A DNA stretch of 20,819 nucleotides from Reclinomonas americana ATCC 50394 (GCA_048213135.1 PS015058.1:182042-202860), one strand, 5' to 3'. Positions 1-20,340 are shown, counted from the stretch's first letter. Program-made: numbers and translations. Notes: generated by a model from the letters alone, not told the origin.

Positions 1-302
1 GCATATGCATGACAGTAATTAAAGGAGAAGGAAATGGAGGAAGGTTTTAATCAGGGTGGTAGAAGAGTGCACGTGAGGGTTGCGTTTGGCTGACTACTGC
101 TGCTGCAAAGGAGAGAAACTGCCTCCTGCTGTTGATCAAGGGCAGAATGAACAAGGAGACCATTTACTTCAACATCATGGATCCCGGTCTGTGCCACGTA
201 CCTCTCATGACTATAAAGAAGGAGGAGAAGGAGGAAGGTTCTAGTCAGGTTATAAGAGTGGAGGGTTGCGTTTGTTTCTCTCCACAACAGCTCGCGGGCT
301 CA

Positions 303-1919
<1,617 letters not shown>

Positions 1920-1963
1920 TTTTGTCTAAAGTATAAAGTCGCGTCCTGCCTGTGCGTTTTGTT
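1920..1963. promoter_or_regulatory. Putative bidirectional promoter between divergent start codons
   Basis: Only 44 bp separate the minus-strand ATG (1919) and the plus-strand ATG (1964). The spacer is AT-richer than its surroundings and has TATAAA at 1932-1937. Confidence 0.55.
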
Positions 1964-2128
1964 ATGTTGTTCTTGTCACGCGCTCGGAGGTTGTTCTTCT
2001 CCACTGATGCAGTGAAGGAGGCTGCAGCAGTGAAGCGGGCGTGGAACTTTTCGGCGGGACCGTCGTGTTTGCCGACTCGTTGCGTGTGTGTGTGTGCAGG
2101 GAGGGAGAGGGAGGGAGAGAGCAGAGAG

Positions 2129-2160
<32 letters not shown>

Positions 2161-2180
2161 AGAGAAGAGAAGAGAAGAGA

Positions 2181-2221
<41 letters not shown>

Positions 2222-4069
2222 NNNNNNNNNNNNNNNNNNNNNNNNNNNNNNNNNNNNNNNNNNNNNNNNNNNNNNNNNNNNNNNNNNNNNNNNNNNNNNN
2301 NNNNNNNNNNNNNNNNNNNNNNNNNNNNNNNNNNNNNNNNNNNNNNNNNNNNNNNNNNNNNNNNNNNNNNNNNNNNNNNNNNNNNNNNNNNNNNNNNNNN
2401 NNNNNNNNNNNNNNNNNNNNNNNNNNNNNNNNNNNNNNNNNNNNNNNNNNNNNNNNNNNNNNNNNNNNNNNNNNNNNNNNNNNNCTCTCTCTCTACCATA
2501 CCTCCTTCTCCTCCTCCTCCTCCTCCTCCTCCTCCTCCTCCTCCTCCTCCTCCTCCTCCTCCTCCTCCTCCTCCTCCTCATCTCTCTCTCTCTTGTGCCC
2601 TAGCAGCGATGCAGGCACCCAAGTCGTCACCTAATCACAGAGTGGCTGAGAGACAACGCGCGCCTATGCATAGATGAAGGCGCCCATCGACTCCTTCTCT
2701 CTCTTCTCCTTCTTCCTCTCTCTCTTCGTCTTTTTTCCTCTCTGTCTCTCTCCCTCCCTCCCTCTCCTTCCTCTCTCCCTCTCACCCACCCGCTCCCTCC
2801 CTCCCTCTCCCTCCTCCGACCTCCACGCAGCCGTTCTCCAGCAGATTCGCGATGAGCTGCTGTCGTTTGACGGCAGCGGAATGAGCCTCATGGAGATGTC
2901 GCATCGTGACGTGGGCGGCCCTGTGCAGCACATGATGCAGTCGTCGGTCGAGTTGTTGCGACAGCTGCTGGAGGTGCATGCGACTCTTCTGTTCCATCAC
3001 ATGCCCCTTTGCCCTCACGCTTCTTGGCTTGTCGTGCCAGGTGCCGAGCAACTACCACGTGCTGCTGATGCAGGGCGGGGCGCATGGGCAGTTCGCCGCG
3101 GTGCCGCTCAACTTGATGGGTCAGCCAGGTCGCACGTACGGAGCGTATGTGGATGCGGGGTTTTGGAGTCGTCGCGCGTTCAACGAGGCCACGCGTCTGC
3201 GTGTCGGCGACATGCGTGTGGTGTACAACAACGAGGCGGCGCACAAGTATAGGCGATTGGGTGCGCCGAGCGAGTGGGAGGTGGACGACAAGGCCGCGTA
3301 CATTCATCTGTGTGCGAATGAGACGATTCATGGACTGGAGGTGCTGCGCGATGTGGAGTCGCCAGTGGCCGGCGTGCCGCTGGTGCTGGACGCCACCTCC
3401 ACCCTCCTCAGTCGCCCGCTCGATATCAGCAAGTACGGCGTCGTGTACGCCTCCAGCGGCAAGAACCTCGGACCCGCCGGCATCACCGTCGTTATTGTGC
3501 GCGACGATTTGCTGCAAGACGGCTTGGCGCTGCCCGGCTGCCCGTCGGTTCTGTCGTGGAAGCAGGCGGCGACTTCCGGGGGCGCCTACAAGCAACCGAA
3601 TCTGTACAACACGCCACCGACGTTCATCTGCTACGCCATGTGGCGCGTGTTGCAGCACACGCTGCAGCGTGGCGGTGTGCCGGCCATGGAGAAGCGTGCG
3701 GTGGCGCTGTCTTCGGAGATCTACAACATTGTCGACAGCAGCCACGGCTTCTACTCGAATCACGTGGATCCTGCGTTCCGCTCGCGCATGAATGTGCCGT
3801 TCCGCATCAACGGCGGCGACTTGGAGCTGGAGCGCCTGTTTACCCGTGAGGCGGAGCAGAAGCACGGTCTCCTGCAGGTGTTTGGGCATCCGCTTTTTGG
3901 CGGGCAGGTGAGTGTTCTTGGAGGGAAAGGGAGGGAGGTAACGAGGAAGCTGATTGTGGTGTTTGCATTTGTTGCGCAGCGAATTACGCTGTACAATGCG
4001 GTGCCGGAGGAGGCCGTGGCCAAGATGACGGACTTTATGCGAGCGTTCCAGAAGCAGTATGCGCGGTAG
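1964..4069 (+). CDS. PSAT1: Phosphoserine aminotransferase (PLP-dependent class V aminotransferase), about 404 aa; exons 1964-2078, 2831-2973, 3041-3907, 3980-4069
   Basis: Spliced product contains NFSAGPSCLP, SLMEMSHR, LMQGGAHGQFAAVPLNL, CANETIHG, the PLP-lysine motif YASSGKNLGPAG, LYNTPP, RSRMNVPF and GHPLFGGQ|RITLYNA. The Arg-rich N-terminal extension is MLFLSRARRLFFST. Confidence 0.96.
2100..2820. repeat. PSAT intron 1: (GA)n in the 5' part, (CCT)n/(CT)n in the 3' part, N gap at 2222-2484
   Basis: Directly visible. Confidence 0.95.
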
Positions 4070-4159
4070 TGGGCGAGGGAAGTGGGGGGAGGGGAGAGAG
4101 TCTGCTAATTAGTGTAATGTGATGTCGGCGTTGGAGGAGGAGGAGGCAATCGGGGAAGA

Positions 4160-4445
4160 CTTTCCATGCGGTGTTGGAGGTTGTGTTCTCTCCCCAGTTC
4201 GGTCACACGGGGAGGGTCCCCTGGTGACCGGATGACGGGTCTAGCGAGTCGAGGGTCAAGTGTCGGAACAACGAGAGAGAAAGGAGGGGGAGTTGTGCTT
4301 GCACTTCTTCGGCGCATGCCCTATCGGGCCCACCCTCTACTCATCGCTTGCGAAGCTTGTTGGTACTTGAAGATCCCGCCACAGAAACCCAACAGCTTTC
4401 TGACAACTCTCTTGACAGGAATTTTTGTGTGTGAAACGCGACTGA
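4160..4445 (+). ncRNA. Candidate structured non-coding RNA of unknown family, with an Sm-like site
   Basis: Nested helices by eye: 4198-4213/4217-4232 hairpin, 4237-4242/4371-4376, 4243-4256/4332-4348 and 4168-4188/4381-4396. AATTTTTG lies at 4420-4427, followed by a short possible hairpin. G-U pairs favour the plus strand. Confidence 0.3.
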
Positions 4446-4532
4446 GAACAGACACGCACACCTTGTCGGTGTGTGCATTCTCTCTCCCTCCTCTCTCCAG
4501 CTCTGTGTTCTCATTGGCCTTGTGGCGCACAG

Positions 4533-4831
4533 TTCTCTGTGAATGTGAGTGCGGCGCATGATTCGTCGCAGTCGGTGGTGGTGGAGGGCATGTCGGCCGT
4601 GTCCACTCTTGCGGACTTGCTGCGTGAGGCCACACGTTTGCTGCGTGAGAAAAGTGGAGATGGGGAGATGGAGATTGTGGGAGTAGAGAAGCCGGTGCCG
4701 TACGACATTGACGATACGAGCGCGATGAAGTTGAAATCACTCGGCATCAACTCGTCCACTCATCTCATCGTCCGTGTGACGCTTGACGTGCCGCTGCCAC
4801 TGAGTGGAGGGAGTGGGAGTGGGAGTGGAAG
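4533..4831 (+). CDS. Upstream exon of the NACHT-WD40 gene encoding a ubiquitin-like (beta-grasp) domain and a Gly/Ser linker
   Basis: Acceptor gcgcacag|4533 and donor ag|gtgtgt at 4832. Encodes FSVNV..SVVVE..STLADLL..KLKSLGINSSTHLIVRV then GGSGSGSG. It joins in frame through micro-exon 4896-4916 and intron 4917-4993 (branch-like CTGAC at 4973) to the 4995 ORF. Confidence 0.6.
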
Positions 4832-4994
4832 GTGTGTGTGTCTGTGAATCGCCCTCTGTGCACAACATGCATCTCACTCTCATGTCTCCGCACAGCAACT
4901 CGGAGCGAGTGACTCGGTTTGTTTTGCTTGCCCTCGTCATCCTTCTCTCCCCTGCTTGCTCTTTCATTGATGCTGACAGCAGTGGGCGCACAGC

Positions 4995-7900
4995 ATGGTC
5001 AACTCACAGCGCATCAACATGGCCTTCGAGGTGGTGGTGGAGGCCGTGCGTCTGCGCTGTCAACGTGCACTTGCCCAGTTCAGTCGCGATCATGCCGATT
5101 TTGATGTGCGGGCGTGGACTCCCGATGTGTGGACACCGCCGTTGTTCTGGCATCCGTTGACAATCAAAGCGTGGTACGATCGGCATGCACCACTCGCACC
5201 TGGTCGCGTCAAGTTGTTTGCACCGCAGCAGCAGCACATGCTCGACTGGAAGTCCGCCTTCGATGCCGACCACAACTCCGACCCTTCGTGTGACGCATTT
5301 GATGTGACGGCTTTGGCATCCATCTTACTGTTTGGTGGCTTTGTGCACGATGATGCGTCCTTCCGCCTGATCAGTCGCGCAAGCGAACGTTCAACGGTGG
5401 AACAACTGCGTGATGTACGGAACGAGTTGGTTCACGGGTCGTCTGCATGGACCGACGCCAGTGCGCAAGAGTATCTCGGTGACCACGGCACGTTCCTTGC
5501 CCTCCTCGGCAAGCTGCGCCATCCTGCCGACGCAACGGCCGGTTTTGAAACGCGGATTCGTGAGGCGCGCCTCATTGATGACGACTTTAGCACGTTTGCC
5601 GTGCGTCTGCATCGACTGGCTCACCGTGAGATGGCCTATTATCACGACGACGAGAGTGTGCGCAAGGACATACAGATGTATGTGCCACTGCTGTGCTCCC
5701 GTGAGCGTGACGTCTCGTCGACAGACAAGATGACGGATCTGTTGACGGAGGTGGATGCCTTCCTCGCTGACACCAACACCACGCAGCGTGTGTTGGTGTT
5801 GTTTGGCAATAGTGGCGCAGGCAAGACCACCTCCATGTCGGTGCTCGCTGAGAGAGCGTGGCGACAGTGGCAGACGAGAGACAGCAGACGAGTGCCTGTG
5901 CGTGTGCCTCTTGGCGCACTGCGCAATGCCGATGAGCGACTGTTGGAAGAAGCACTGGAGCGACTGTCACCTGAATTGGGATTCGGCGAGTCGGATGTAC
6001 GACGGTTGAAGGAGGAACCACTGCTGCTGTTGCTTGACGGATACGACGAGTTGTACCGTGGTGTGAATCTGTTTGTCAAAAACCAGCTGGATCCGTCTGT
6101 GTGTCGCGATGTGAAGGTGATCATCACGTGCCGAGGCGATTATGCGCTGACGGCATTGGGTGGTGCGGCACAATATCGACGGTACCTTGCACCGCTAGAT
6201 GCACGAGGACAGTTGTGCATGCAGCAGTTGATGGAACGACACATGTCACCATTCAACAAGGAGCAGATTGAGAAGTACTTTGAGCGACTTGTGCAAGTCA
6301 GTGGTGATAATGACAGTGAAGTGCGATGGTCGACTGCCAAAGAGTACATTCGTGCACTGAAGAGTGTGCATGGACTGGATGCACTGGTGTCGAATCCGTT
6401 CCTGCTGGCTGTGGTGGCTCGTGTGTTACCGCAGTTGGTGGCGAGTGGTGTGCAGCGACCAACTCGGTGCGATGTATTCGACCGATTCATTCGACAGTGG
6501 ATTGTGAGGGAGCAGGAGAGGCAGACGCGTCTCGGTGCGGAGCGTGTGCCAAGTGAGGAGACGTGTCTCTCCTTCTGTGAGGGACTGGCACGGTTGATGC
6601 ATGAGAAGAATGTGGTGCGTGTGTCTGTGACGGAGAATCGGTCAGAGGATGGTGATGAGGAGGTTGACTTTGGTGGTGCGCCACTCGCCTTGCGACGAGT
6701 GGAAGAGAGATCATTTGACAAATTCCTCGGTCACAAGAACCAGCATGTGCGAGTGTGTTGTCCGATTGTGCGACGGTACGGGACGACGCAGTGGGGATTC
6801 GTGCATCTGTCGTTGCTGGAGCACTGTGTGGCGCGGCATGTGTTTGCATGGGAGACGTGGGATGAGGAGAGGCGGTTGACGATGCAAGATGTGCAGCAGC
6901 ATGTGTTAGGAGCGCGACTGCTGAATGATCGTCCATCGCTGGTGGAGCAGATGGCCGAGGTGGTGCGACGGTCTCCAGCGTTGCAAGCGAGACTGTGGGA
7001 GGTGATTTCGGTGTCCCGTGAGGTGGATGAGGAGCGAGTGGTGACGGCATCGGCGAATGCAGCAACGGCGTTGTGTGTGGCACAAGTGTCGTTCAGTGGA
7101 CGAGACATGTCGGGTGTGCGAGTGCGGGGTGCGGATTTGAGGGATGCGGTGATGCATAGGACGGTATGGAGGGAAGCGGATTTGCGAGGGGTGAATGTGT
7201 GCCTTGCGTATGCGAGGGAGGCGGATTTCACGGGGGCGGATGTGATGGGTGTGAAGTGGCCGAGAAGGCCTATGGAGGGCCACACTGGAGAGGTGAACTC
7301 GGTCGCTGTCACTCCCGATGGCCAGCACATTGTGAGTGGCAGTGGGGACAAGACTGTAAGAGTGTGGTCACTGGCAAGTGGCGAGGAGATACGCCGACTG
7401 AAAGGCCACACGAGTGTGGTGCGGGCTGTGACAGTGACACCCAATGGTCAGTACATTGTGAGTGGCAGTAATGACAAGACTGTACGGGTGTGGTCAGTGA
7501 CAAGTGGCAAGGTGCGCCGACTACAAGGGCACATGGGTGAGGTCCGGGCAGTGGCAGTTACACCCGATGGCCAGTACATTGTGACTGGCAGCTGGGACAA
7601 GAGTGTTCGTATGTGGTCACTGGTGAGTGGCAAAGAAGTAAGGCGACTGGAAGGCCACACGAGTTGGGTGAATGCAGTGGCAGTGACACCTGATGGCCAG
7701 CACGTCGTTAGTGGCAGTGGAGACAACACTGTGCGTGTGTGGTCACTGGCAAGTGGAGAAGAAGTGCGACGGTTGGAGGGACACACAGACTGGGTGTATT
7801 CTATCGCTGTCACTCCCGATGGGCAGCACGTTATGAGTGGAAGCAGGGACAAAACTGTGCGGATGTGGTCGGTGGCAAGTGGCGAGGAGGTGCGCCGACT

Positions 7901-9215
7901 GGAAGGCCACTCGAATGGGGTGCAAGCAGTGGCAGTGACACCCGATGGCCTGCACATCGTGAGTGGCAGTGCGGACGACACTGTACGGGTGTGGTCGCTG
8001 GCGAGTGGCGAGGAGGTGCGCCGACTGGAAGGCCGCTCGATTGGGGTGCGTGCTGTGGCAGTGACACCCGATGGTCTGCACATTGTGAGTGGCGGTTATG
8101 CCAAGACTGTGCGTCTGTGGTCTGTGGTGGGTGAGGAAGGCGTGCGACAGATGGGAGGACACACTGATTCAGTGCATACCGTTGTGCTCACTCTCGATGG
8201 CCAGAGCGTCGTGAGTGGAGGTGGAGACATGACGGTGAGGATGTGGTCGGTGACAACTGGAGAAGAATTGTGGAAGGTGGAAAGACAGTCGTCGGACCTC
8301 ATCGTGTCTCCGGATGGTCGGTATGTTGTGAGTGGGAGTGTGGACGGAGCGGTGCGTGTGTGGTCGCTGGCGAGTGGTGAGGAAGTGTGGCGGTTGGAGG
8401 GACACATTGAAGCCGTGATGTCTGTCGCCTTTACTCCCGATGCTCAGCAAGTAGTAAGTGGGCGTAATGACCCCACGGTGCGTGTGTGGTCCCTGGCGAG
8501 CGGAGACGAAGTGCGACGGTTGAAGCGACACACTGGAATAGTGAACTCTGTCGTCGTCACTCCCGATGGTAAGAACATCGTGAGCGGACGTTGGGACACC
8601 ACAATGCGAGTGTGGTCACCGGCGAGTGGAGAAGTAGTGCGACGATTGGAAGGACACACTGACTGGGTGCGATCAGTTGCCGTCTCTCCTGATGGTCAGC
8701 ACATTGTGAGTGGGAGTGAGGACAGAACAGTGCGAGTGTGGTCACTGGCGAGTGGAGAGGAGGTGCGACGGTTGGAGGGTCACACTGGCGTGGTGAACCT
8801 TGTTGTTACCACTCCCGATGGTCAGCACATCGTGAGTGCGAGTGACGACGAGACACTGCGAGTGTGGTCACTGGCGAGTGGAACAGAAGTGCGACGGTTG
8901 GAAGGACACTCTCTTCGTGTGCGGGCTGTCGCCATCACTCCGGATAGTTCGTACATCATGAGTTGTGATTATGGTGGGATTGCGCGAGTATGGTCACTTG
9001 CGAGTGGAAAAGAAGTGCCTCTTGACGACCAGGCGGATCTTGTGACTCCTGAATTGGGTCGTGTGGCTTTCCTTGGCTGCACGGCCTTTGGTACTGCTTA
9101 TACCACGCGAGTGTCTGGCAAAAGGATCTTTCTGATGCGTCGAAACACTCGTGGGCTGGTGGAGCGTATCTTGGGCACTGTGTTGCCTGACTTCTCCTAC
9201 GCACTCGGTATTTAG
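4995..9215 (+). CDS. NLR/STAND-like protein: HEPN (DZIP3-like) domain, NACHT NTPase, pentapeptide repeats and 14 WD40 repeats; uninterrupted 1406-aa ORF, probably the last exon of a longer gene
   Basis: FDVTALASILL...LRDVRNELVHG (RxxxxH at 5418-5435); Walker A GNSGAGKT (5805-5828); Walker B LLLLLDGYDE; IITCR; LVSNPFLL; winged-helix FVHLSLLEH; ADLRD/ADLRG/ADFTG pentapeptides; 14 GH...W repeats. Confidence 0.95.
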   Translation: MVNSQRINMAFEVVVEAVRLRCQRALAQFSRDHADFDVRAWTPDVWTPPLFWHPLTIKAWYDRHAPLAPGRVKLFAPQQQHMLDWKSAFDADHNSDPSCDAFDVTALASILLFGGFVHDDASFRLISRASERSTVEQLRDVRNELVHGSSAWTDASAQEYLGDHGTFLALLGKLRHPADATAGFETRIREARLIDDDFSTFAVRLHRLAHREMAYYHDDESVRKDIQMYVPLLCSRERDVSSTDKMTDLLTEVDAFLADTNTTQRVLVLFGNSGAGKTTSMSVLAERAWRQWQTRDSRRVPVRVPLGALRNADERLLEEALERLSPELGFGESDVRRLKEEPLLLLLDGYDELYRGVNLFVKNQLDPSVCRDVKVIITCRGDYALTALGGAAQYRRYLAPLDARGQLCMQQLMERHMSPFNKEQIEKYFERLVQVSGDNDSEVRWSTAKEYIRALKSVHGLDALVSNPFLLAVVARVLPQLVASGVQRPTRCDVFDRFIRQWIVREQERQTRLGAERVPSEETCLSFCEGLARLMHEKNVVRVSVTENRSEDGDEEVDFGGAPLALRRVEERSFDKFLGHKNQHVRVCCPIVRRYGTTQWGFVHLSLLEHCVARHVFAWETWDEERRLTMQDVQQHVLGARLLNDRPSLVEQMAEVVRRSPALQARLWEVISVSREVDEERVVTASANAATALCVAQVSFSGRDMSGVRVRGADLRDAVMHRTVWREADLRGVNVCLAYAREADFTGADVMGVKWPRRPMEGHTGEVNSVAVTPDGQHIVSGSGDKTVRVWSLASGEEIRRLKGHTSVVRAVTVTPNGQYIVSGSNDKTVRVWSVTSGKVRRLQGHMGEVRAVAVTPDGQYIVTGSWDKSVRMWSLVSGKEVRRLEGHTSWVNAVAVTPDGQHVVSGSGDNTVRVWSLASGEEVRRLEGHTDWVYSIAVTPDGQHVMSGSRDKTVRMWSVASGEEVRRLEGHSNGVQAVAVTPDGLHIVSGSADDTVRVWSLASGEEVRRLEGRSIGVRAVAVTPDGLHIVSGGYAKTVRLWSVVGEEGVRQMGGHTDSVHTVVLTLDGQSVVSGGGDMTVRMWSVTTGEELWKVERQSSDLIVSPDGRYVVSGSVDGAVRVWSLASGEEVWRLEGHIEAVMSVAFTPDAQQVVSGRNDPTVRVWSLASGDEVRRLKRHTGIVNSVVVTPDGKNIVSGRWDTTMRVWSPASGEVVRRLEGHTDWVRSVAVSPDGQHIVSGSEDRTVRVWSLASGEEVRRLEGHTGVVNLVVTTPDGQHIVSASDDETLRVWSLASGTEVRRLEGHSLRVRAVAITPDSSYIMSCDYGGIARVWSLASGKEVPLDDQADLVTPELGRVAFLGCTAFGTAYTTRVSGKRIFLMRRNTRGLVERILGTVLPDFSYALGI
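7272..9017 (+). repeat. Array of 14 WD40 repeats of about 126 bp (42 aa) with high internal conservation
   Basis: Consensus LEGHTxxVxxVAVTPDGQHIVSGSxDxTVRVWSLASGEEVRR. DNA-level identity is visible between units, for example gcgagtggcgaggaggtgcgccgactggaaggcc and close variants. Confidence 0.95.
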
Positions 9216-9762
9216 GTCAGCAAGATGACAACATGGACGGAGAGAGGATCGAGAAGCGAGCAGATTCGTGCGCTGGTGGTGGCGCGAGATCGGCGAGTGG
9301 AGGGTGCGGTGGAGCCAGATTCGCCGGCGGGTGCGGTGTCGTCGGTGGCGTCACTGAGTAAGGCGGAATTGGGCACGAGTGAGATTGGTGCGGCGGCGGT
9401 GGAGCGGCGGTGAGGGCGACGCGGTGCAGAAGAAGAAGGGTGAGAAAAGGGAGAAAGGGGAAGGGGAAGTGAGTGGCGTGTGTGACTGACTTTGGCTTTT
9501 TGCGTTGGTGTGCAGTGTCAACGCCGTGCTACGGTGCCGCGTGTGTGGTTTGTAAAGATTGGTGTGAGACGCGTGGAGGGCGAGGCGGAGCAGAAGAGAA
9601 AGGGTGAGTGGGCAAAGGGGGAAGGGGAAGTGAGTGTCAAACGTTTTTTTGTAAAGATTTGTTTACAGTACCGTAGAATTTCCCTCGCAATCTGGCGGTT
9701 GTGTTGGTGCTCGCTGTTAGTGAGTCAGTGTGAGTCAGAGTGTGTGCGTGTAAGCATCGCCC

Positions 9763-12700
9763 ATGTTCAAGCCGTACAAGACGGCTCCGGCGCCCATCAG
9801 CGTGCGACCGCGACCACCGTCTGGCTCGATTTTTGCCTCACCGACGGCGACTCCACAGAATGCCAGTGATCGAACACCCAGGTGACACTCACAGTACTCA
9901 CACATCGGTGACCGCACTCACTCATTCACTCACTCTTACCACGTCTCAGTCGCTTCGCGGACCCAGCAGCCGAGGTTGCAGTTTCGTCAGAGATCCATCA
10001 ATCTGTTTCATCACAATCCTCTCCCCTTCTCTCTCACTCACTCTCGCACACAGCGACGACGACGAGAGCTCATCCTCGGCTACTCGGTGCCGCTCCAGAG
10101 CGAGGAGACATTCGGTACATCACACTCTGTCCATCTCTCTCCCTTTACCCACACTGATAAGCTGACTATGAGATCATCTCCTCTCCAGCTGCGGTAATCA
10201 AGCAAGTGCGCATCAAGCTGCACGCCGACGCACGGCAAGACCTGCGGCGCGTGCTCACCTCCGACGAGGGCATGGCGGTGTTCTACTCGCTCTTCTGGCT
10301 CGTGTACTGCCGCCTCATCACGCCGCTCACGACCGTGGAGGAGCAGAGGACTCTGCTGGCGCGCCTCTCCAAGGCGACGGCCGAGTTTCAGGATACGATT
10401 GAGAAGAAGACGAGCTGGGTGATGAAGGTGGGCTGGAGTCCACTCTTTGGACTCCAAGTTGTGATCTCATGTGTGGCCCCCATCGCAGCACATCCACGCC
10501 CTGTGGGCGCAGTCCTGTGTACTTGCCTTCCACATGGTGCTGCCGTCGGTGGCCGTCGGCTTCACACCGCGCACTGAGCTCGACATTTACCAGACGGTGA
10601 TGTTCCTGTTCACTGGCGTGCAGCTCGGCAACAAGACACTCGACAAGATCCGCCGCCGTCTCTTTGTGCCCGGCGAGAAGGACATGTGGGTGGACGAGGA
10701 GAACGAGGAGGAGGAGGCGTCGACGCTGCGCTTCCGGCCGAAGCTGCCGCCACTGGAAAAGTACACGCCCGAGTGGTTCCTCACTCCCGCGGTCGCCGAG
10801 CAGTACCTCGAGTCTCTGCAAGTGAGCGAAATGGAGGCGAACGCCAGCAAGGCCGCAGCCGCAGCCTCCGGCACCATCTCCCACTACATTCATCTCAGTC
10901 ACAGCAGCAGCTCCGCTCTGGCCGCGGACGGACTCGACACCGATGTGGCGGTCGGACCGCGCCCGGCCACCGCACATCAGGCCTCCACGTTTATCACGGA
11001 GGCGCATGCGGATGTTGCGTTGGGCATGAGACAGTCACTCTGCTTCCTTTCAGCGTGCGTCTTTCCCACATTGTTCCTTTCCCTTCGCCTGCTCCCATTT
11101 GCCTTTCTTCTCCCTTTGCACCATCTGCACTGTCACCAGCACTCTCTCTTCTGTCCCTCCACCCTTGTGTTGCATTTCACTTCTCTCGTCTGTCTCTTCT
11201 TGTTTGTGCTCACGGAATTTATTTGATGCAGGGACCTCGCGAGCTGCGAACAGAGGTCATGGTCGTTCCGCCAGTGGTCGACACCACAGTGCGGGATCCC
11301 GTGCAGGCCAGTAATTTCGATAATCTGCGAGCCGAGGAGAGAGAGTTGCGGCGGTATAGTGTGCTGTGGTGCGCTGCTGAAGGTTGCTAAATCACGGTGT
11401 AGACGAGCCATGCGCGTGTTCGACACGTACACTTTGAGTCCCGTCGTGCAAAACCTGGTCAAGGGTCGCCGACTGAATGTCTCCACGTCCGTGAGCGGCC
11501 GTTTCTACGTGCCACTGCGTGAGGAGAGTCGTCTCGATCCCTCGCATAACCGCCTCAAGAGCAGCTCGTTGCACTTTCTCGGTGAGCACGCACCGACGAC
11601 ACTGCTTGCTGTTGCATCTGCTCATCGCTTCTTCGCAGCTCCCGAAGAGGTCGATCCAGGCAAGGCGGCAGCGCCAGGCACCACACAACAACTCTTTGCC
11701 GAGTACAACACCAACGGTGACCCGCAAAGGTCACCCGAGGAATCGGCGCAGTCGCCAGAGCCAATGGAGGAGCCGTCACCAGGTGTGTGCGCGAGCGAGT
11801 GCCTGCTTGTGTTTGTGTGTTGTACTCACTGTAGCGATTACAGTGCGAGAGGACGCTGGCCTGTTTCCCGTGACCTTCCTTGTGGCGCACAGCTCCCTTG
11901 ATCCGTCAGTCACCAAGGGACCGCGACCACCACCGTCTGTGTTGGAAAAGGACGAGACTCTGCGCGGGATTCCGAGTTGCGCTCTGTCCCCTTGCTGTGC
12001 ACGCAACGCAGATGATTGACTGGGTTGCAGTGCTGCCTCTGCGCGGAGGCAAGCGAGACAAGAACAAGGTGGCGAAGAAGCTCACGTACTGGGAGAGTCT
12101 ATTGAGTTGCGCGCTCCTGCTCTGCATGCACTGGTTGACAGATCATCTCACCATTGCCCACCAGAACTCGACCGCGAAGGCATCACACCGGACCAACGAG
12201 AGGAGCTCACCAAGGAGCTGTTCCGACGCAGCTACCGCACATCCGACTTTCCCGATTACCTCACGTTGCCGGAGAAGGAGGGCCTGAGGTGCGACGATGT
12301 TTATTCTGCATTCCGCGAAGCATGCAAGCCTTGCTTTCCCCTTATCTTCCCCTTGTCTTCCCCTTGTCTTCCCCCTTGGCCTCTCCCCTTCGCTTCCCCC
12401 GTCTCCTTCCCCCTTCGTCTTTTCTCTTCACCCTCCCCCCTTTGCTTCCCTTTTGCTTCCTCAGTTGTGATGATCTCCACGCCAAACTTTCTTTCGCTTC
12501 CCCCTTCGTCTCCCCCCTTTGCTTCCCCACATCTTTTCCCCTTCGTCTCCCCCCTTCGGTCTTCCTCCTTCGGTCTTCCCCCATCGTCTTCCCCCATCGT
12601 CTTCCCCCATCGTCTTCCCCCATCGTCTTCCCNNNNNNNNNNNNNNNNNNNNNNNNNNNNNNNNNNNNNNNNNNNNNNNNNNNNNNNNNNNNNNNNNNNN

Positions 12701-15700
12701 NNNNNNNNNNNNNNNNNNNNNNNNNNNNNNNNNNNNNNNNNNNNNNNNNNNNNNNNNNNNNNNNNNNNNNNNNNNNNNNNNNNNNNNNNNNNNNNNNNNN
12801 NNNNNNNNNNNNNNNNNNNNNNNNNNNNNNNNNNNNNNNNNNNNNNNNNNNNNNNNNNNNNNNNNNNNNNNNNNNNNNNNNNNNNNNNNNNNNNNNNNNN
12901 NNNNNNNNNNNNNNNNNNNNNNNNNNNNNNNNNNNNNNNNNNNNNNNNNNNNNNNNNNNNNNNNNNNNNNNNNNNNNNNNNNNNNNNNNNNNNNNNNNNN
13001 NNNNNNNNNNNNNNNNNNNNNNNNNNNNNNNNNNNNNNNNNNNNNNNNNNNNNNNNNNNNNNNNNNNNNNNNNNNNNNNNNNNNNNNNNNNNNNNNNNNN
13101 NNNNNNNNNNNNNNNNNNNNNNNNNNNNNNNNNNNNNNNNNNNNNNNNNNNNNNNNNNNNNNNNNNNNNNNNNNNNNNNNNNNNNNNNNNNNNNNNNNNN
13201 NNNNNNNNNNNNNNNNNNNNNNNNNNNNNNNNNNNNNNNNNNNNNNNNNNNNNNNNNNNNNNNNNNNNNNNNNNNNNNNNNNNNNNNNNNNNNNNNNNNN
13301 NNNNNNNNNNNNNNNNNNNNNNNNNNNNNNNNNNNNNNNNNNNNNNNNNNNNNNNNNNNNNNNNNNNNNNNNNNNNNNNNNNNNNNNNNNNNNNNNNNNN
13401 NNNNNNNNNNNNNNNNNNNNNNNNNNNNNNNNNNNNNNNNNNNNNNNNNNNNNNNNNNNNNNNNNNNNNNNNNNNNNNNNNNNNNNNNNNNNNNNNNNNN
13501 NNNNNNNNNNNNNNNNNNNNNNNNNNNNNNNNNNNNNNNNNNNNNNNNNNNNNNNNNNNNNNNNNNNNNNNGTCTCCCTCGTCTCCCTCGTCTCCCTCGT
13601 CTCCCTCGTCTTCCCCTTCTCTTCCCCCTTCGCTTCCCCCTTCGCTTCCCCCCTTCGGTCTTCCCCCTCTGCTCCCCCTCTCACTCGCGTGCCTGCAGAA
13701 AAATGTATGCCGACCGAGTCAAGCGACAGGAGCGGAAGCAGCGCAAGGGATCACTCGGCAACCTGGACGACTTGGCTGGTGAGCTCCTCCTCGCTCGCGC
13801 ACCCTGCCCCCTCCCTTTCTATTTCGACTCACCACCACTCGGCAACGCAGCGGTGGCCTTGGGTGGCAACCTGGATGACGAGACCGACGAGGAGGCGGAG
13901 ACAGGCGTGCGCCAGCGTGCTGCCGTCGAGCAAGCCGAGGCACATCTGGCGGAGAGCATACCGAAACCGTGTGGTAGCGTCTGCTGATCACCACCCATCG
14001 TCACCACGATCCCTTGTCGTCACTGACCTTTCCGCTGTGCACAGCCAAAAACGAGGAGTACATGAGCACCCTGCAGCAGCGTGTGGAAGCCGAGGCGCGC
14101 TTCGATGCCACTCGTGCGCGTCTGGAGAGTGACCTCTCGCGCAATCGCCGCAAGGTCAAGATCAAGCTGCAGAAGCTCACCGAAACATGCAAAAAGGTGG
14201 TTCGTGAAGGACCGCAGACCATGCAGCGTCTCGTTCAGGAGCAAAGTTGCGTCGCTTTGTCACGACTGCATGGCGCCGCGTGCACGCTGACACGCGAGTG
14301 ACGCACGCACGCAGAGATCGAGATGGAGAAGCGGGGAGGAGAGCGCAATCTGCCACCCACCCTGCGCGCTCTCGTGCACCGACTGCCGACGCAAGCACAC
14401 TTGGCGCGTGCGCGACTCAGCCGCGGTCAGCACGTGGCCAGCGAGGAGGACCGAGAGCGAGTGATGCTCGAGTCGACCAAGGCCGGCAACAGCACCCAGG
14501 CATTCATCGACGACGTCGAGCTGCTGTTGAACAATGACCGCCGAGGTGCGCTATCCCCAACCCCCACCTATCCACCTTGCCCATATTCTTACCTCTTGTG
14601 GTGTGGAGCAGAACAAGCGGAGCAGAGCAAGCCTGCCGCTGATGACTCGGGGTCGGAGGCCGCGGCCTCCACGTACCGCTCGAAAACGTCGAGTCGTGTG
14701 GGTTCGTCGGGTCTGCGACGCAGCCGGCTGCAGTCGCGCCTCGACGTGAAGCGCCCGCATGGTCGACCGCGCTCAACAAGTTCCGTGGCCACTTCCTCCT
14801 CCTCGACAGCACCATTCGACTACGGTGTCGATCAGGAGGAGGAAAGTGAGGAGGGCAGTGACGATGACGACGACGACGATGATGATGACGACGACGATGT
14901 CGACGACGAAGATGTCGACGACGATGTTGACGACGATGACGGTGACAGCGAAGTGGCGATTGTGGCGATGCGAGTCGGGAAGGGCGCGACGGCCGGAGAC
15001 GACAGCAGCAAGACCACCAGCCGCGCATCGTCTGCTTCAAAGAGACCAAAATCCGCGACCGGTACCACAGCAGCGGCGACTGCGACCACTGCGTCGACGA
15101 CCACAACCACTGCGGCCTCGGCGGCGGGCACGCCCGGACGAAATTCGCCTCCTCCGCCAGCGGCCGTGGCTGGTGGCGCGCGGCGAGGATCGGGCGGTGT
15201 GCGACTGCGCATTCCCGGCTACCACGACTCCGACATTCTCGTGTCGACGCCCGCTCGCAACTCGCAGCTACGCAACGTGGAGCCCTCGAAGGGACGCCGT
15301 CGCCTCCAGCCCATCGACACGACTCACACCAGCAGCAGCAGTGGCGGTCCGTCGGCGTTCTCCTCGCAGGGTGCCTCACCGTCGTCCACCTACACCAACA
15401 GCCCTGTGCACGAGTTGCTGACTTCGGCGTTGGACGAGTCGGTCACAGCAGCGCCGAGTGTACTCGGGCACATTCGAGCGCACGATATGCCGCGCCACTC
15501 ACTGGCGGTGATGGGCGCCAGCTCGGCCTCGCTGCTGTCGGACCGGAAACGCACGTTTTCGCGCACGCCCGAGATGATGATGGCGCACATTAACACGCTG
15601 AATCAGTTGCCGAGTCCGACCTCCATGGCCGCAGCGCCGCGTGCCTCCTTCTCGGCCAGCTCGAGCTCCGGAGCACTGCTTTCCGCCACCGGTCCACGGC

Positions 15701-16556
15701 CGACGCTCAACACGACGACGCTGGTGCGCATGCTGGAGGAGCGCAAGCTGAATGCACCGGTGCGATCGGAGAAGAAGGACTTGCCGGAGGATGTCATCCC
15801 CGAGGACATGCACGACCTCGTACTCAGCATCGTGCGTCTCGGTGGCGGCGTGCACATGTGCGGCGTGCAGCACCCCGAGTACACGAAAGACGAGGTGCAG
15901 CGGGAGGCGGCCAAGTCGTTTCGTGTTTACCCACAGTTGTGTACTCGCCCTCCTAAAACTGACACACAAAACTGCAGTGCGATCGAGGAGTACAAGCGCG
16001 AGAAAGGTCTGCGAGTCAAGGAACTCAGCGAGGAGCAGTACATCGCGCTCGGTGTGATGCCGGTGCTGCAGGCCGAGGATAGCGTGATGGACGAGTACTT
16101 CAATTCGACGAGCAAGGCCGCCAGCATTGCCACCGAAGTCACCAGCACTCTGCGTGATGTGGCGCGCTTCTCCCGCGACCTCGACGCGGCACTCAAGTTG
16201 TGTCGACCTTGTTCGTCTGCCAGACAATCTCTCTCTCGCTTACTCACCTTCGGCCCAACCGCAGAGATGCCACGCGACGCACCGGCAAGCGCATCCTTCG
16301 CCGCCTCAAGCTCGACCCGTCGTTCAACACGCCCACGCCAGTGGAGCGTGCGCGCGAGCAAGCAGACAGAAGGCATCGCCTCGGCCGCTCACCGGAGATC
16401 CCCGAGGCCCTGCGGCCACCAAAGGGTTTCTCCGCATGCGGCGGCAGCACCAGGTCCTCCAGCCTCCCACCACCTCAAATATCGCGATCGCTCTTCCTGA
16501 ACATGGTGCGCTCCAATCCAGCTGCTGGCGGCAGCGAAGAACCACCCAAATCGTAA
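9763..16556 (+). CDS. FAM227-like (FWWh domain) protein with a long low-complexity C-terminal extension; about 17 exons: 9763-9881, 9950-9980, 10054-10114, 10189-10427, 10489-11013, 11232-11353, 11403-11782, 11844-~11938, 12012-12105, 12165-12288, 13699-13778, 13851-13973, 14045-14245, 14315-14545, 14612-15917, 15978-16196, 16265-16556
   Basis: In-frame GT-AG exon chain. The N-terminal part has SLFWLVY...Q..LLARLS...LWAQSCVLAFHMVLPS...F...IYQTVMFLFTGV and VFDTYTLSPVV, which resemble FAM227/FWWh from memory. Several donors and the 11783-12011 region are ambiguous, and the N gap at 12633-13571 could hide exons. Confidence 0.65.
12330..13680. repeat. Pyrimidine-rich degenerate minisatellite (CATCGTCTTCCCC, GTCTCCCTC, CTTCGCTTCCCC units) flanking an assembly gap in an intron
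   Basis: Tandem 13-mers at about 12582-12632 and 9-mers at 13572-13610; N gap at 12633-13571. Confidence 0.9.
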
Positions 16557-16591: not shown

Positions 16592-19149
16592 TCATTCACT
16601 ACTGCTGAGGAGCGAGACGATGCATCCGACCGAGTCTGCGATGGCGGGTGTGAGGGGAAGGGAGAGAGCGGATATGAAAAAGCGATAACACTGTACCGAT
16701 CGAGTACGTGGGGTTTGTTTGCACAATTTCGTCGCGGTGCAACTCGGGATGTGTGACGCCTGAGTACATGGTGTGTGAGAGCGGGGAAGGAGAGAGGAAA
16801 GGAGGAAGTGGAAAGGGGGAAGACGGAAGGGGGAAGTGGAGAGGGAGTAGTGGAAGGGGGGAGGTGGAAAGGGGGGAGTGGAAAGGGGGAAGTGGAAGGG
16901 GGAAGCGGAAAATTGAGAGTGAGTGAGAAGGGGGAAGTGCAAGGGGGAAGTTGAAAGGGGGAAGTGGAAGGGGGAAGTGGAAGGGGGAAGTGGAAGGGGG
17001 AAGTGGAAGGGGGAAGTGGAAGGGGGAAGTGGAAGGGAGAAGTGGAAAGGGGGAAAGTGGAAAGGAGGATGTGGAAAGGAGGAAGTGGAAGGGGGAAGTG
17101 GAAGGGGGAAAGTAGAGAGGGGGAAGTGGAAAGGGGGCAGTGGAAAGGGGCAGTGGAAAGGGGGAAGTGGAAAGGGGAAGTGGAAAGGGGGAAGTGGAAA
17201 AGGGGAAGTGGAAAGGGGGGAAGCGAAACAGGGAAGTGGGAAGGGGGACGTGGAAAGGGGAAGGGGAAAGGGAGAAGTGGAAAGGGGGAAGAGAAAAGGT
17301 GGAAGTGGAAAGGGGGAAAGGAAAGTGGGAGTGGAAAGGGGCAAGTGGAAAGGGGGATGTGGAAAGTGGAAGACAGGAAAGTGGAAAAAAGGGGGGTGGA
17401 AAGGGGGGAAGTGATTAAGGGGAGGTGGAAAGGGGGAGGTGGAAAGGGGAAATGAAAAAAGGGGGAAGTGGAAAGGGGAAATGAGAACAGGGGGACGTGG
17501 AAGGGGGAAGTGGAAGGGGGAAGCGGAAGGGGGAAGTGGAAGGGGGAAGTGGAAGGGGGAAGCGGAAGGGGGAAGTGGAAGGGGGGAAGTGACGTGGAAG
17601 TGAAAATGGAGTGGAAGGGGGGAATTGGAAAGGGGGAAGTGACGTGGAAGTGAAAAGGGGGAAGTGGAAAGTGGAAGGGAAGGGGACATTGAGAACGAAC
17701 CTGTATACGCCAGCATGCTGTGGATACCAGCTGCCTGCGCAAACATAATGTCGGTGTCGAGTCGGTCACCAATCATGCAACTGCGTGCTGGATCAAAATT
17801 CTTGCTGTCCGTTCAAGAGATGTGAGATGAAAGTAAGCGCCACATGCGCGACATCGTGTCACGCAACGCATGAGAGATAATCTCCCAGAACAGCGCCATG
17901 GGTTTGCCGACCACAACTGGCGTTCGCTCGGCTGCCGTCGCGATGCACGCCAGAATAGCACCCGCACCAGGCAGCAATCGATCGCCATGCGGCTGTCAAA
18001 CCCACGGTGAGTCTCATTGCCCTGCTCGCACACACTGGATGAGCATGCGCAACATAGGTCGCGTCGGGATTGGTGGCCACAAACTGGCAGCCGGCATTCT
18101 CGCGCAGACAGCTCACAGCGTACGCGCACTTTTCGAGGTCGAATGACGAGTCAAATGCCGAAACCACCACGGCAATCTGCGCGAAAAGAAGTGAGCATTG
18201 GAGGGTGGTAGCGTGGGGAGACTCGGACTACACCTCGGGATCAACTCGTCGCTTGGCAAACTCCGACTCGATGTACTTGCCCGAGCACACCGCTGCGGGG
18301 GAGAGTGAGAAGAGGAGAGCGTGCACGAGAGTGCGGAGGAAGCAGAGAGCGCAACTCTCAGCCGCAACGCAGTGGCAACCGAGCTCCGTGAGTTCCGTCA
18401 ACATGCCGCTCTCGCCAATGATCAGCGCCTTGTGCGTGTCGAGATTGTTGCTCTTGAGGTACAAGCCGACTGTGATGCGTAAGCAATGCTGAGTATTATC
18501 AAACCACAGACAGTTATGTGGGAGAAGTAACAGCACACCTGCATATGCCGAGGTGAAGATCTCCGGCTGAGAGGAGCATGAGTGAGAAGGAGGGTGGGAG
18601 GGGGAAGGGGGAAGTGGGAAAGGGGAAACAATTGCAGACATCTGTGCGCACTCTCTCTCAGCAGTCATGAGGTCGGAGAGCTGGTCACGAAGCGCTGGCA
18701 GATACACAAGGCCTCTCTCAGACTGCTCTGTTGCGGTGACTACAACAACGAGAAGAGAGAGATGCAGAAGCTCTTCATGCAGTCTCGGAAAAGTACGCAA
18801 TGCACTGCGAAATACACAAAGCCTCTCAATCGTTGTAAGTCTCTGTCTGCGGCTGCAACAACGAAAGGAGAGAGCAAGAGTAATGGCAGAGTTCAAAGCA
18901 GCAGTCTGTGTAATGTGTTGCGCTTTCTCTCTTCTCTGCATGCAGCCATGAGTTCGGAGAGCGACAAGGAGCAGAGTAATGCAGTGGCAAATACCAAGGC
19001 CTTTTTCATTCACTCGTCGGCAGTCAGTCTCTGCCAGTTCTGTCGCGGCGTAGAAAGAGAGAGAGAGAGAGAGCGAGAAAGAGAGATGTGGCAGAGTTCA
19101 AAGCAGCAGTATTTCTTATCCTTCGTGCGTATGAGTGATATGCGCAAGT

Positions 19150-19184
<35 letters not shown>

Positions 19185-20340
19185 NNNNNNNNNNNNNNNN
19201 NNNNNNNNNNNNNNNNNNNNNNNNNNNNNNNNNNNNNNNNNNNNNNNNNNNNNNNNNNNNNNNNNNNNNNNNNNNNNNNNNNNNNNNNNNNNNNNNNNNN
19301 NNNNNNNNNNNNNNNNNNNNNNNNNNNNNNNNNNNNNNNNNNNNNNNNNNNNNNNNNNNNNNNNNNNNNNNNNNNNNNNNNNNNNNNNNNNNNNNNNNNN
19401 NNNNNNNNNNNNNNNNNNNNNNNNNNNNNNNNNNNNNNNNNNNNNNNNNNNNNNNNNNNNNNNNNNNNNNNNNNNNNNNNNNNNNNNNNNNNNNNNNNNN
19501 NNNNNNNNNNNNNNNNNNNNNNNNNNNNNNNNNNNNNNNNNNNNNNNNNNNNNNNNNNNNNNNNNNNNNNNNNNNNNNNNNNNNNNNNNNNNNNNNNNNN
19601 NNNNNNNNNNNNNNNNNNNNNNNNNNNNCCTCCTCTCTCTCTCTCTCTCTCTGTCTGTCTGTCTCCCTGCAGTCAAGGAGTTCAGAGAGCGGCACAGAGC
19701 AGAGCGCAATGCACTGGAAGATACACAAGGCCTCTCTCGTTGTAAGTCTCTGTCTGCGGCTGCAACAACGAGAGGAGAGAGACAAGTGGAAGAGTTCAAA
19801 GCAGCAGTCTGTGAGACGTGTTGCGTTCTCGTTTTCTCTCCACGCAGTCATGAGTTCTGAGTGACTGCAGGATACACAAGGCCTCTCTCTCGAACGGGTG
19901 TCAGTCTAGTTGAGAGCGGAAAGAGAGACAAGTGGAAGAGTTCAAAGCAGCAGCATGTGTAATGTGTTGTGTTCTCTCTCTCTCTCTCTTCTCTCCCCTC
20001 CCTCCCCCCCTCCCCTCCCCCTCCCTCTCCCTCTCTCCCCCACCCACTCACCACCGTCGACTCATAACCCATCGAATTCAGCTTCTGCATCACTCCCTCA
20101 CGCGACAACCGACTGCTGTTCGTCACAAACGTCACCGACTTTCCCATGTTGCGCAGCATACACACAGCCTCCGGAGCTCCCTCAATCACATCATGCCCGC
20201 GATACAACACACCTGAAAAACAAACAAACAAAGAGAGAGAGAAGGGGGAAGAGGAGGAGGAGGAGGAGGAGGAGGGCCAGAGAGGGAGGAAAGAGCAGTG
20301 AGTGTGCCTGTGTGTGTGAGAGAGAGAGAGAGTGTCTGTG

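Follow-up and report, generated by a model that had tools for sequence, protein, structure and literature searches.

What kind of receptor, if any, is encoded by the single long open reading frame (ORF) in a 20,819-nucleotide stretch of DNA from Reclinomonas americana ATCC 50394 (GCA_048213135.1 PS015058.1:182042-202860)? The whole stretch is called the window below. The ORF, at positions 4995-9215 of the plus strand, is uninterrupted over 1406 codons, and its product is designated P0001. A preliminary description of this DNA had placed there an NLR-like receptor with a HEPN RNase-type effector, a NACHT, a pentapeptide segment and a WD40 sensor, in this order. Both the ORF and the four-part order were borne out, the latter by Pfam, by the WD40 units and by the tests of the N-terminal region (the head) described below. 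The explanation favored here is that P0001 is an NLR-like STAND receptor, in which HEPN would be the effector, NACHT the switch, the pentapeptide segment (a short solenoid) a linker, and the WD40 repeats the sensor. As the best explanation overall, this is reasonably probable; the predicted architecture by itself, HEPN included, is very likely. The order of the modules is the tripartite one of NLR-like proteins: an N-terminal effector, a central STAND NTPase, and C-terminal superstructure-forming repeats. The features of the gene are as follows.

4995-9215, plus strand: whole ORF of P0001, 1406 amino acids (aa) and a stop codon; from ORF reading
4995-5522, plus strand: N-terminal region (aa 1-176), all-helical in the model, with a predicted, diverged Swt1-like HEPN, the aligned core of which (aa 91-158) lies at 5265-5468; from Pfam, a hidden Markov model (HMM) of our own, hhalign, Atlas, AlphaFold2 (AF2) and VIA-align (VIA)
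5298-5330, plus strand: FDVTALASILL (aa 102-112), with D103 aligned to a conserved Asp, at which the second conserved helix of HEPN_Swt1 domains from bacteria begins; from alignment A4
5418-5435, plus strand: R142-N143-E-L-V-H147, candidate motif of the HEPN active site (Rx4H, the Arg being followed by a polar residue); from A4, at the end of the modelled helix 129-147
5787-6287, plus strand: NACHT NTPase (aa 265-431), with Walker A at 5805-5828 and Walker B at 6024-6050; from Pfam
6288-7055, plus strand: post-NACHT helical region (aa 432-687), conserved with relatives; from alignment A1
7056-7274, plus strand: pentapeptide-repeat segment (aa ~688-760); from Pfam and PDB matches
7275-9026, plus strand: 14 WD40 repeats (12 of 42 aa, one of 41 and one of 39; aa 761-1344); from unit alignment
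9027-9212, plus strand: C-terminal tail (aa 1345-1406), with no family in a Pfam scan of aa 1348-1406

An in-frame TGA (4974-4976) lies six codons 5' of the first ATG. The GC content at the three codon positions of the first 150 codons (0.63/0.44/0.64) agrees with that of the rest of the ORF. This means that the N-terminus is coding sequence.

The N-terminal head and HEPN

HEPN is described as an all-alpha, four-helix up-down bundle of about 100-120 residues, in which the motif ends helix 3 (Anantharaman et al. 2013, PMC3710099). According to the same source, this motif has the form Rx4-6H, and its Arg is directly followed by a polar Asn, Asp or His; an upstream second acidic residue, typically in Ex3[KR], is found in many but not all HEPN families. 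In P0001, the peptide LRDVRNELVHG (aa 138-148, 5406-5438) contains R142, N143 and H147. This peptide with its intact RxxxxH, and FDVTALASILL, had been pointed out near the N-terminus, and both were found as quoted. R142-x4-H147 lies on the invariant Arg and His of 26 bacterial HEPN_Swt1 domains, and N143 is the polar residue following the motif Arg. It should be noted that a bare Rx4H is uninformative: the whole protein contains 13 of them, 11 of which are in the WD40 repeats or in the stretch just before them.

Weak matches to HEPN RNases were obtained in three profile libraries. Pfam HEPN_Swt1 (PF18731) matched aa 121-158 with an E-value of 0.011 and 16.5 bits (profile positions 65-101 of 115), two CARF_HEPN models of PADLOC matched the head with E 0.0081 and 0.013, and Cas13e of NCBIfam matched it with E 0.13. 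In each library, a HEPN RNase was the only or the best weak match, and all of these matches were over aa ~121-171. The matches to ivWA (E 0.025) and mad8 (E 0.013) were dismissed: they were isolated and sub-threshold, with no second line of support. A PDB sequence search with aa 1-250 at E <= 10 gave no match, and a PHROGs scan of the head gave no family.

An HMM was then built from HEPN_Swt1 domains. The sample was drawn from 401 genomes of the phylum to which genome G001 belongs; 26 of them gave 27 matches over the Pfam cut-off. Twenty-six of the 27 domains were used: L118 was taken for a duplicate of L117, judging by their equal scores alone, and dropped, and the single match below the cut-off was also excluded. 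Three members checked with Pfam were bona fide, one with HEPN_Swt1 and DUF499 (L116), one with HEPN_Swt1 and DUF4011 (L126), and one with no further family (L134). The members are of the Ava_2192 type of Anantharaman et al. 2013 (PMC3710099). Against the first 260 residues of P0001, this HMM scored 18.1 bits (E 1.7e-7 for one target), with aa 91-152 aligned to profile positions 36-93. The best of 1000 shuffles reached 7.9 bits; with 3573 unrelated real segments and proteins (746,963 aa) as targets, the maximum was 8.0 bits. When all six frames of the window were scanned (169 segments), the head region was the sole match below E 0.01, with 15.9 bits and E 1.4e-4; the runner-up had 8.0 bits. None of the N-termini of the 14 chassis relatives described below appeared among the top rows listed, all of which were above 4.7 bits. 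In addition, hhalign aligned aa 97-154, from a query of aa 1-200, with the 26-row alignment at a probability of 60.6% and E 8.3e-5.

In the 27-row alignment A4, R142 and H147 are invariant (27/27). The conserved W, D, F and ER of HEPN_Swt1 are matched by W85, D103, F123 and E130-R131, and SERSTVEQLRDVRN corresponds to aERslvsELRdvRN of that family. The language-model features of Atlas point in the same direction. For aa 50-180, the top cluster had a score of 0.93 with 186 shared features, and 39% of its members carry HEPN_Swt1; the clusters of DUF4559 (CXorf38 family) and HEPN_DZIP3 came next. For all 250 residues, the nearest clusters were HEPN_DZIP3 (0.83) and HEPN_Swt1 (0.82), which is taken as a lead only. 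As judged by these sequence comparisons, the similarity of aa 91-158 to HEPN_Swt1 domains exceeds chance.

The fold of the head was modelled with AF2. With the 27-row A4, an all-helical model was obtained, with a predicted local distance difference test score (pLDDT) of 64.8 and a predicted template-modelling score (pTM) of 0.55. Its helices are at residues 2-32, 54-67, 72-92, 104-113, 129-147 and 154-172, and the Rx4H is at the C-terminal end of helix 129-147. This placement agrees with the helix-3 end described in PMC3710099. A VIA comparison with 48,161 chains listed 50 entries with Z 4.9-7.1, covering model residues 1-176. At least eight of the 50 entries listed (1wwp, 2hsb, 1ylm, 3c8g, 3brj, 6kcr, 7ae2 and 8xdj; Z 5.4-6.8) are HEPN by their titles or by PMC3710099. 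A complex prediction for two copies of aa 1-180, in which the alignment was not used, scored 0.00 and counts neither way. Six further entries of the VIA list (5yep, 4rgp, 9oik, 8oz7, 1ufb and 1jog) are presumably HEPN-bearing too. This fold evidence is weak, and a HEPN fold of the whole head is a prediction.

NACHT, WD40 repeats and effector slot

The NACHT had been called complete, and this was confirmed. Pfam NACHT (PF05729) matched with E 1.9e-9 and 38.0 bits against a cut-off of 26.7 (profile positions 1-162 of 167). Walker A (GNSGAGKT, aa 271-278) and Walker B (LLLLDGYDE, aa 344-352) are intact and follow the consensus patterns. In alignment A1, G274, G276, K277, D351, E352 and R380 are invariant in all five rows. 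A Pfam scan of aa 432-690, which contain the post-NACHT helical region, gave no family. The segment behind it matched Pfam Pentapeptide (PF00805) with E 9e-7 and 28.8 bits against a cut-off of 20.2, and the PDB sequence matches of aa 1-760, 16 out of 16, were pentapeptide-repeat proteins aligned to aa 688-756 (best E 4.3e-7). A block of the form AAANAxTILNxAGVSFSG...GADL...EADLR is common to P0001 and its relatives.

The WD40 sensor proposed at the outset was also confirmed, with a profile match of E 3.7e-141 in 14 stretches and 14 aligned units. The number of repeats is enough for two 7-bladed propellers, and they probably form two beta-propellers. The repeats are far more similar to one another than those in ordinary WD40 proteins. 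Among the 12 units of exactly 42 aa, the mean proportion of nonsynonymous differences (pN) was 0.25 and that of synonymous differences (pS) was 0.56. Positions 5, 6, 8, 24 and 26 of the repeat are hypervariable, with pN of 0.63-0.69 and six to nine residues each, and flank the conserved V7 and D25. In the fungal HET-E/D proteins, positive selection has been described at codons 7, 9, 25 and 27, which flank the conserved 8 and 26 and belong to the interaction surface of the propeller (Paoletti et al. 2007, PMC1805685). The variable positions of P0001 match these sites after a numbering offset of one residue.

Relatives were sought for the protein behind the head, that is, the chassis. A search with aa 200-760 gave nine proteins, seven of which aligned across the NACHT-pentapeptide module; the other two, P0007 and P0009, matched the pentapeptide part only. 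In blastp alignments, P0002-P0005 showed 31, 27, 27 and 25% identity over about 500 aa, and P0006, P0008 and P0010 showed 23-26%. A metagenome scan gave 46 related loci, with identities of 22-28% to L001-L010. The identity of P0001 to any bacterial relative was at most 31% in local alignments or 34% in the MAFFT alignment. In P0003, P0004 and P0005, three of the nearest chassis relatives, the WD40 repeats seem by eye to be followed by a further, shared C-terminal domain of ~200 aa, which P0001 lacks.

The N-terminal regions of the relatives differ. Nineteen of the 46 loci, namely the 16 best-ranked and three lower ones, were examined, and 14 of the 19 have at least 90 residues before Walker A. 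None of these 14 N-terminal regions contained R[NDHQ]x3-5H or was similar to the head of P0001, the sequence of which is unique among the relatives sampled. Pfam was run on ten of the 14: caspase, class-3 lipase, Mrr_cat and ARM repeat were found, and the other six gave no family. In precomputed Pfam lists, P0006 carries NRPS modules and Mrr_cat, and P0008 and P0010, the second of which is named from a Trebonia metagenome-assembled genome, carry a trypsin-like peptidase and a metallophosphatase. This variety of effectors on related chassis means that the N-terminus is a slot in which effectors are interchangeable. HEPN_Swt1 was not found in any of five genomes bearing distant chassis relatives, and a pattern search of genome contigs with the 2-row alignment A2 gave 476 pattern matches, none of which was confirmed.

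The contigs of the relatives look bacterial. ORFs occupy 0.74-0.94 of their length (seven contigs checked), and neighbouring proteins resemble TraG/VirD4, XerC, ABC-F Uup and AroB, all under the NCBIfam equivalog cut-offs. The more distant P0010 type is present in genomes of Saccharothrix, Actinosynnema, Herbidospora and Streptomyces. On L001 (12,117 bp, 37% GC), positions 54-11139 hold one of the closest chassis relatives beside two ankyrin/VpdC-like proteins and a TraG/VirD4 coupling protein. The ankyrin/VpdC-like proteins resemble Dot/Icm effectors, under the cut-off. This setting is reminiscent of intracellular bacteria of protists and hints at a route of transfer.

Proposed working, rival explanations and genomic setting

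From the established behavior of STAND NTPases and HEPN RNases, it is proposed by analogy that P0001 would act as an RNase, be activated by oligomerisation and serve in defence. In the resting state, the WD40/pentapeptide arm would keep the NACHT closed. A ligand, for example a viral or other non-self protein, would be bound by the variable top face of the propellers, and this binding would lead to nucleotide exchange and oligomerisation of the NACHT. The oligomerisation would pair the N-terminal HEPN domains, so that a composite Rx4H active site would be completed. The resulting metal-independent RNase might cut RNA of the cell, of the invader, or of both, so that the infected cell would stop growing or die. 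The chances that this mechanism and role hold in full are considered about even.

The first 200 residues might instead be a lineage-specific helical adaptor or regulatory domain, with RNxxxH and its surroundings HEPN-like by chance or convergence. Several results weigh against the receptor proposed here, and most of those on the head speak for such an adaptor. The HEPN_Swt1 match, at 16.5 bits, does not reach the Pfam gathering cut-off of 27.5 bits, and for this reason the head is named a diverged Swt1-like HEPN and not a member of the Pfam family. A phmmer search with aa 1-250 against 1.84 billion cluster representatives gave no relative at E <= 0.001, and a word-index search with aa 1-260, in which 1502 candidates were scored, gave none at the same threshold, so that the head has no detectable homolog in which the motif could be compared. 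Only about 60 residues align: the confident alignment is limited to aa 91-158, and the first core helix can be placed only tentatively. An exact Ex3[KR] was not found in aa 1-141, where only E16xxR19 and E135xxR138 occur, although this feature is not universal. The test with our own HMM was a follow-up and not blind, because HEPN_Swt1 was chosen from the weak Pfam match. AF2 with the single sequence gave a pLDDT of 40.5, and that model was not used. The A4-based model and the fold matches obtained with it do not count as independent, because the alignment was borrowed from the HEPN family; Foldseek with this model against the PDB gave 125 matches at E <= 10 and none at E <= 0.001, and Z of 5-7 is under VIA's own meaningful level for helical bundles. 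As for the sensor, pN about equals pS at the variable WD40 positions, so that positive selection is not shown, and the mean pS of 0.56 means that the repeats are old and not recently homogenised, so that concerted evolution is not shown either. Against an adaptor, the HMM score stands 10 bits above the best of the shuffles and of the real segments, three libraries converge on HEPN models from different families, the language-model match is strong in score and shared features, and the conserved W, D, F and ER outside the motif align as well. An adaptor seems quite improbable, and the head is predicted with high confidence to be a HEPN of the Swt1-like clade, diverged and under the Pfam membership cut-off. 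The N-terminal HEPN of the preliminary description was upheld by the profile, language-model and null tests and failed at the curated Pfam cut-off. The checks proposed with it were similarly divided: in Pfam (Swt1-like, HEPN_DZIP3), HEPN_Swt1 came out as a match, yet a weak one under the cut-off; with AlphaFold and Foldseek, the A4-based model was all-helical with HEPN among its VIA matches, whereas the single-sequence model and the Foldseek search gave no support.

Even if the architecture is right, P0001 might serve conspecific self/non-self recognition, or be a switch in RNA processing or stress signalling, instead of a defence or cell-death receptor. HEPN domains are known in housekeeping RNA processing (Las1, Swt1, Ire1; PMC3710099), fungal NACHT-WD40 proteins govern allorecognition (PMC1805685), and the neighbours, a phosphoserine aminotransferase gene and a 725-aa ORF, provide no defence context. 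However, the closest chassis relatives carry effectors of conflict systems (caspase, lipase, Mrr nuclease, peptidase), and an intact catalytic motif on the N-terminus of a STAND protein is the pattern of bacterial NACHT defence proteins (bioRxiv 10.1101/2022.07.19.500537). A role outside defence seems unlikely on balance. A different question is whether the gene belongs to the working gene set of the host at all, or is bacterial sequence: an assembly chimera, a contaminant, or DNA that was transferred recently and is not expressed. Chassis and HEPN head alike have their nearest relatives in bacteria, the scaffold has five gaps of undetermined bases (N), and the GC content at third codon positions (GC3) is 0.60, against 0.79 in 2978-4069 and 0.72 in 14323-16500. 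The lower GC3 could be compatible with foreign origin, weak codon bias or low expression, and is not pressed. On the other side, 2485-12632 contains no N, which makes the gene contiguous with the aminotransferase gene, whose named best relatives are eukaryotic; a eukaryotic host, in line with the protist assumed at first, is thereby supported. The flanks are long, non-coding and microsatellite-rich, in contrast to the bacterial contigs on which the relatives lie densely packed with ORFs, and the 4.2-kb ORF is intact. The identity to bacterial relatives (at most 31%, or 34% with MAFFT) means that a transfer would not be recent. Foreign sequence outside the host's working genes is very improbable.

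For the NLR-like STAND receptor with a HEPN effector, an origin and a more specific role may be sketched. The protist might have taken over a bacterial-type NACHT-pentapeptide-WD40 receptor, which was armed with the orphan HEPN RNase and would act in suicide or arrest of the cell against viruses, like abortive infection. This sketch is tentative and rather unlikely in its entirety. The source of the chassis could be intracellular bacteria: its nearest relatives are on low-GC contigs with TraG/VirD4 and ankyrin proteins.

The surroundings of the gene in the window are as follows.

4917-4969, plus strand: pyrimidine-rich tract (81% C/T), followed by the in-frame TGA and AG dinucleotides directly before the ATG
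2978-4069, plus strand: phosphoserine aminotransferase gene (Pfam Aminotran_5, E 9.6e-25)
14323-16500, plus strand: 725-aa ORF with GC3 of 0.72, in which no Pfam family reaches the cut-off; a (GAC)n tract at 14860-14946 is Asp-rich
16796-17686: about 64 tandem copies of a purine-rich 13-14-nt unit (GGAAAGGGGGAAGT)
17690-17776, minus strand: 29-residue HAD Hydrolase_like match (E 3.7e-7), opening an ORF that enters the tandem array
550-928, 1402-1616 and 2101-2221: (GA)n arrays
12329-12632 and 13572-13679: pyrimidine-rich arrays of 11-25-nt units
704-723, 1360-1399, 2222-2484, 12633-13571 and 19185-19628: five N runs, 1706 bases in total

The window is a gapped scaffold, and its intergenic DNA is full of strand-asymmetric microsatellites. 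The pyrimidine tract may be a candidate signal of the splice-acceptor type, on the assumption of a kinetoplastid-like gene structure. A kinetoplastid origin, which this tract and the GA/CT microsatellites had brought to mind, is unsupported: among the 120 relatives listed for the aminotransferase, none bears a kinetoplastid name. The host is a eukaryote with no close relative among those sampled. The best matches of the aminotransferase, with up to 55% identity, are mostly environmental or transcriptome sequences of eukaryotes; the named ones among the 120 relatives listed, with 41-49%, are from red algae, a bolidophyte, Stygamoeba and green algae, and one is from an algal virus. Its profile match begins at position 57 of 371 and the N gap 2222-2484 lies upstream, so that the 5' end of the gene may be lacking or may fall within this gap. 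The HAD match at 17690-17776 is probably the end of a gene, the rest of which lies beyond the N gap 19185-19628 or in a different reading frame. An Rfam scan of the window gave no match.

Comparison with known systems

The preliminary description had regarded P0001 as its best candidate for an undescribed system. This was overstated: HEPN-NACHT and HEPN-STAND fusions were published as early as 2013 (PMC3710099), and an undescribed system it is therefore not. In the literature covered, no such receptor is described in a protist; supplements such as Additional file 1 of PMC3710099 fall outside this and may list protist HEPN-STAND fusions. A specialist would find P0001 expected and not surprising, because earlier predictions for animals and bacteria already combine an RNase effector with a NACHT switch and a repeat sensor. 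To our knowledge, experimental work on such receptors is almost absent for free-living or parasitic protist lineages. If the head is an active RNase under the control of the NACHT, P0001, being compact and free of introns, would offer a test case for immunity of the NLR type or for regulated cell death in protists. Since its chassis and its head are both nearest to bacterial relatives, it also bears on the acquisition of NLR-like receptors by eukaryotes. If the takeover sketched above were true, P0001 would be a living example of the proposed route of NLRs from bacteria to eukaryotes, with a sensor that diversifies at the positions of fungal allorecognition propellers.

The nearest system in architecture is that of the bacterial NACHT and STAND proteins. 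HEPN occurs at the N-terminus of bacterial STAND NTPases (PMC3710099), bacterial NACHT proteins have HEPN among their effectors and pentapeptide and beta-propeller repeats among their sensors (Kibby et al. 2022, bioRxiv 10.1101/2022.07.19.500537), and WD40 sensors on bacterial STAND proteins have been described (PMC13581612). Like these proteins, P0001 has NACHT, post-NACHT helical region, pentapeptide block and WD40 repeats, collinear over about 500 aa, behind an N-terminal slot which holds variable effectors. Unlike P0001, none of the 14 extended relatives has its head or R[NDHQ]x3-5H, and the host of P0001 is a eukaryote. The bacterial NACHT proteins are known as defence proteins, whereas P0001 is known here from sequence alone.

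For the head, the closest detectable relatives are the HEPN_Swt1 domains of the Ava_2192 type, with 12-27% identity over the domain. They share with it the W, D, F, ER and LRDVRNxxxH positions and the placement of HEPN N-terminal to a P-loop NTPase. However, the NTPase partner in these proteins is DUF499 (an AAA+ ATPase) or DUF4011 and not NACHT, and the head of P0001 has ~60 additional residues before the second conserved helix and is under the Pfam cut-off. Transfers of the Ava_2192 type to Naegleria, dictyostelids and Daphnia have been described (PMC3710099).

In eukaryotes, HEPN-NACHT fusions are described in the animal CXorf38 and DZIP3 families (Anantharaman et al. 2013, PMC3710099). The CXorf38 (DUF4559) and DZIP3-like proteins resemble P0001 in that a Swt1-like or DZIP3 HEPN is fused to NACHT in a eukaryote. 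According to the same source, they are metazoan and are combined with Death, CARD, ankyrin, LRR or dsRBD, whereas the sensor of P0001 consists of pentapeptide and WD40 repeats. No relation of the head to these proteins was seen at the sequence level in the phmmer or word-index search.

RNase L and Ire1, HEPN proteins of the KEN type, provide a working analogy only, in that these RNases are switched on once an upstream module under ligand control has paired two HEPN domains. Both of them dimerise. Their place within HEPN is given in PMC3710099. They differ from P0001 in that they form the circularly permuted KEN family and that their switch is a kinase or pseudokinase and not a STAND NTPase.

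The fungal HET-E/HET-D/NWD proteins are like P0001 in having NACHT followed by many unusually alike 42-aa WD40 repeats, in which pairs of variable positions flank a conserved residue. In contrast to P0001, HET-E/D carry an N-terminal HET domain and no pentapeptide block; a Pfam scan found no HET domain in the head of P0001, and no fungal protein was among the nine matches of the aa 200-760 search. The fungal repeats are described as up to 100% identical through concerted evolution, against the high synonymous divergence between those of P0001. Taken against all of these systems, the parts of P0001 are already known from bacterial and animal immune receptors; what is new here is their combination, and the points of interest are the host lineage, the orphan head and the bacterial affinities.

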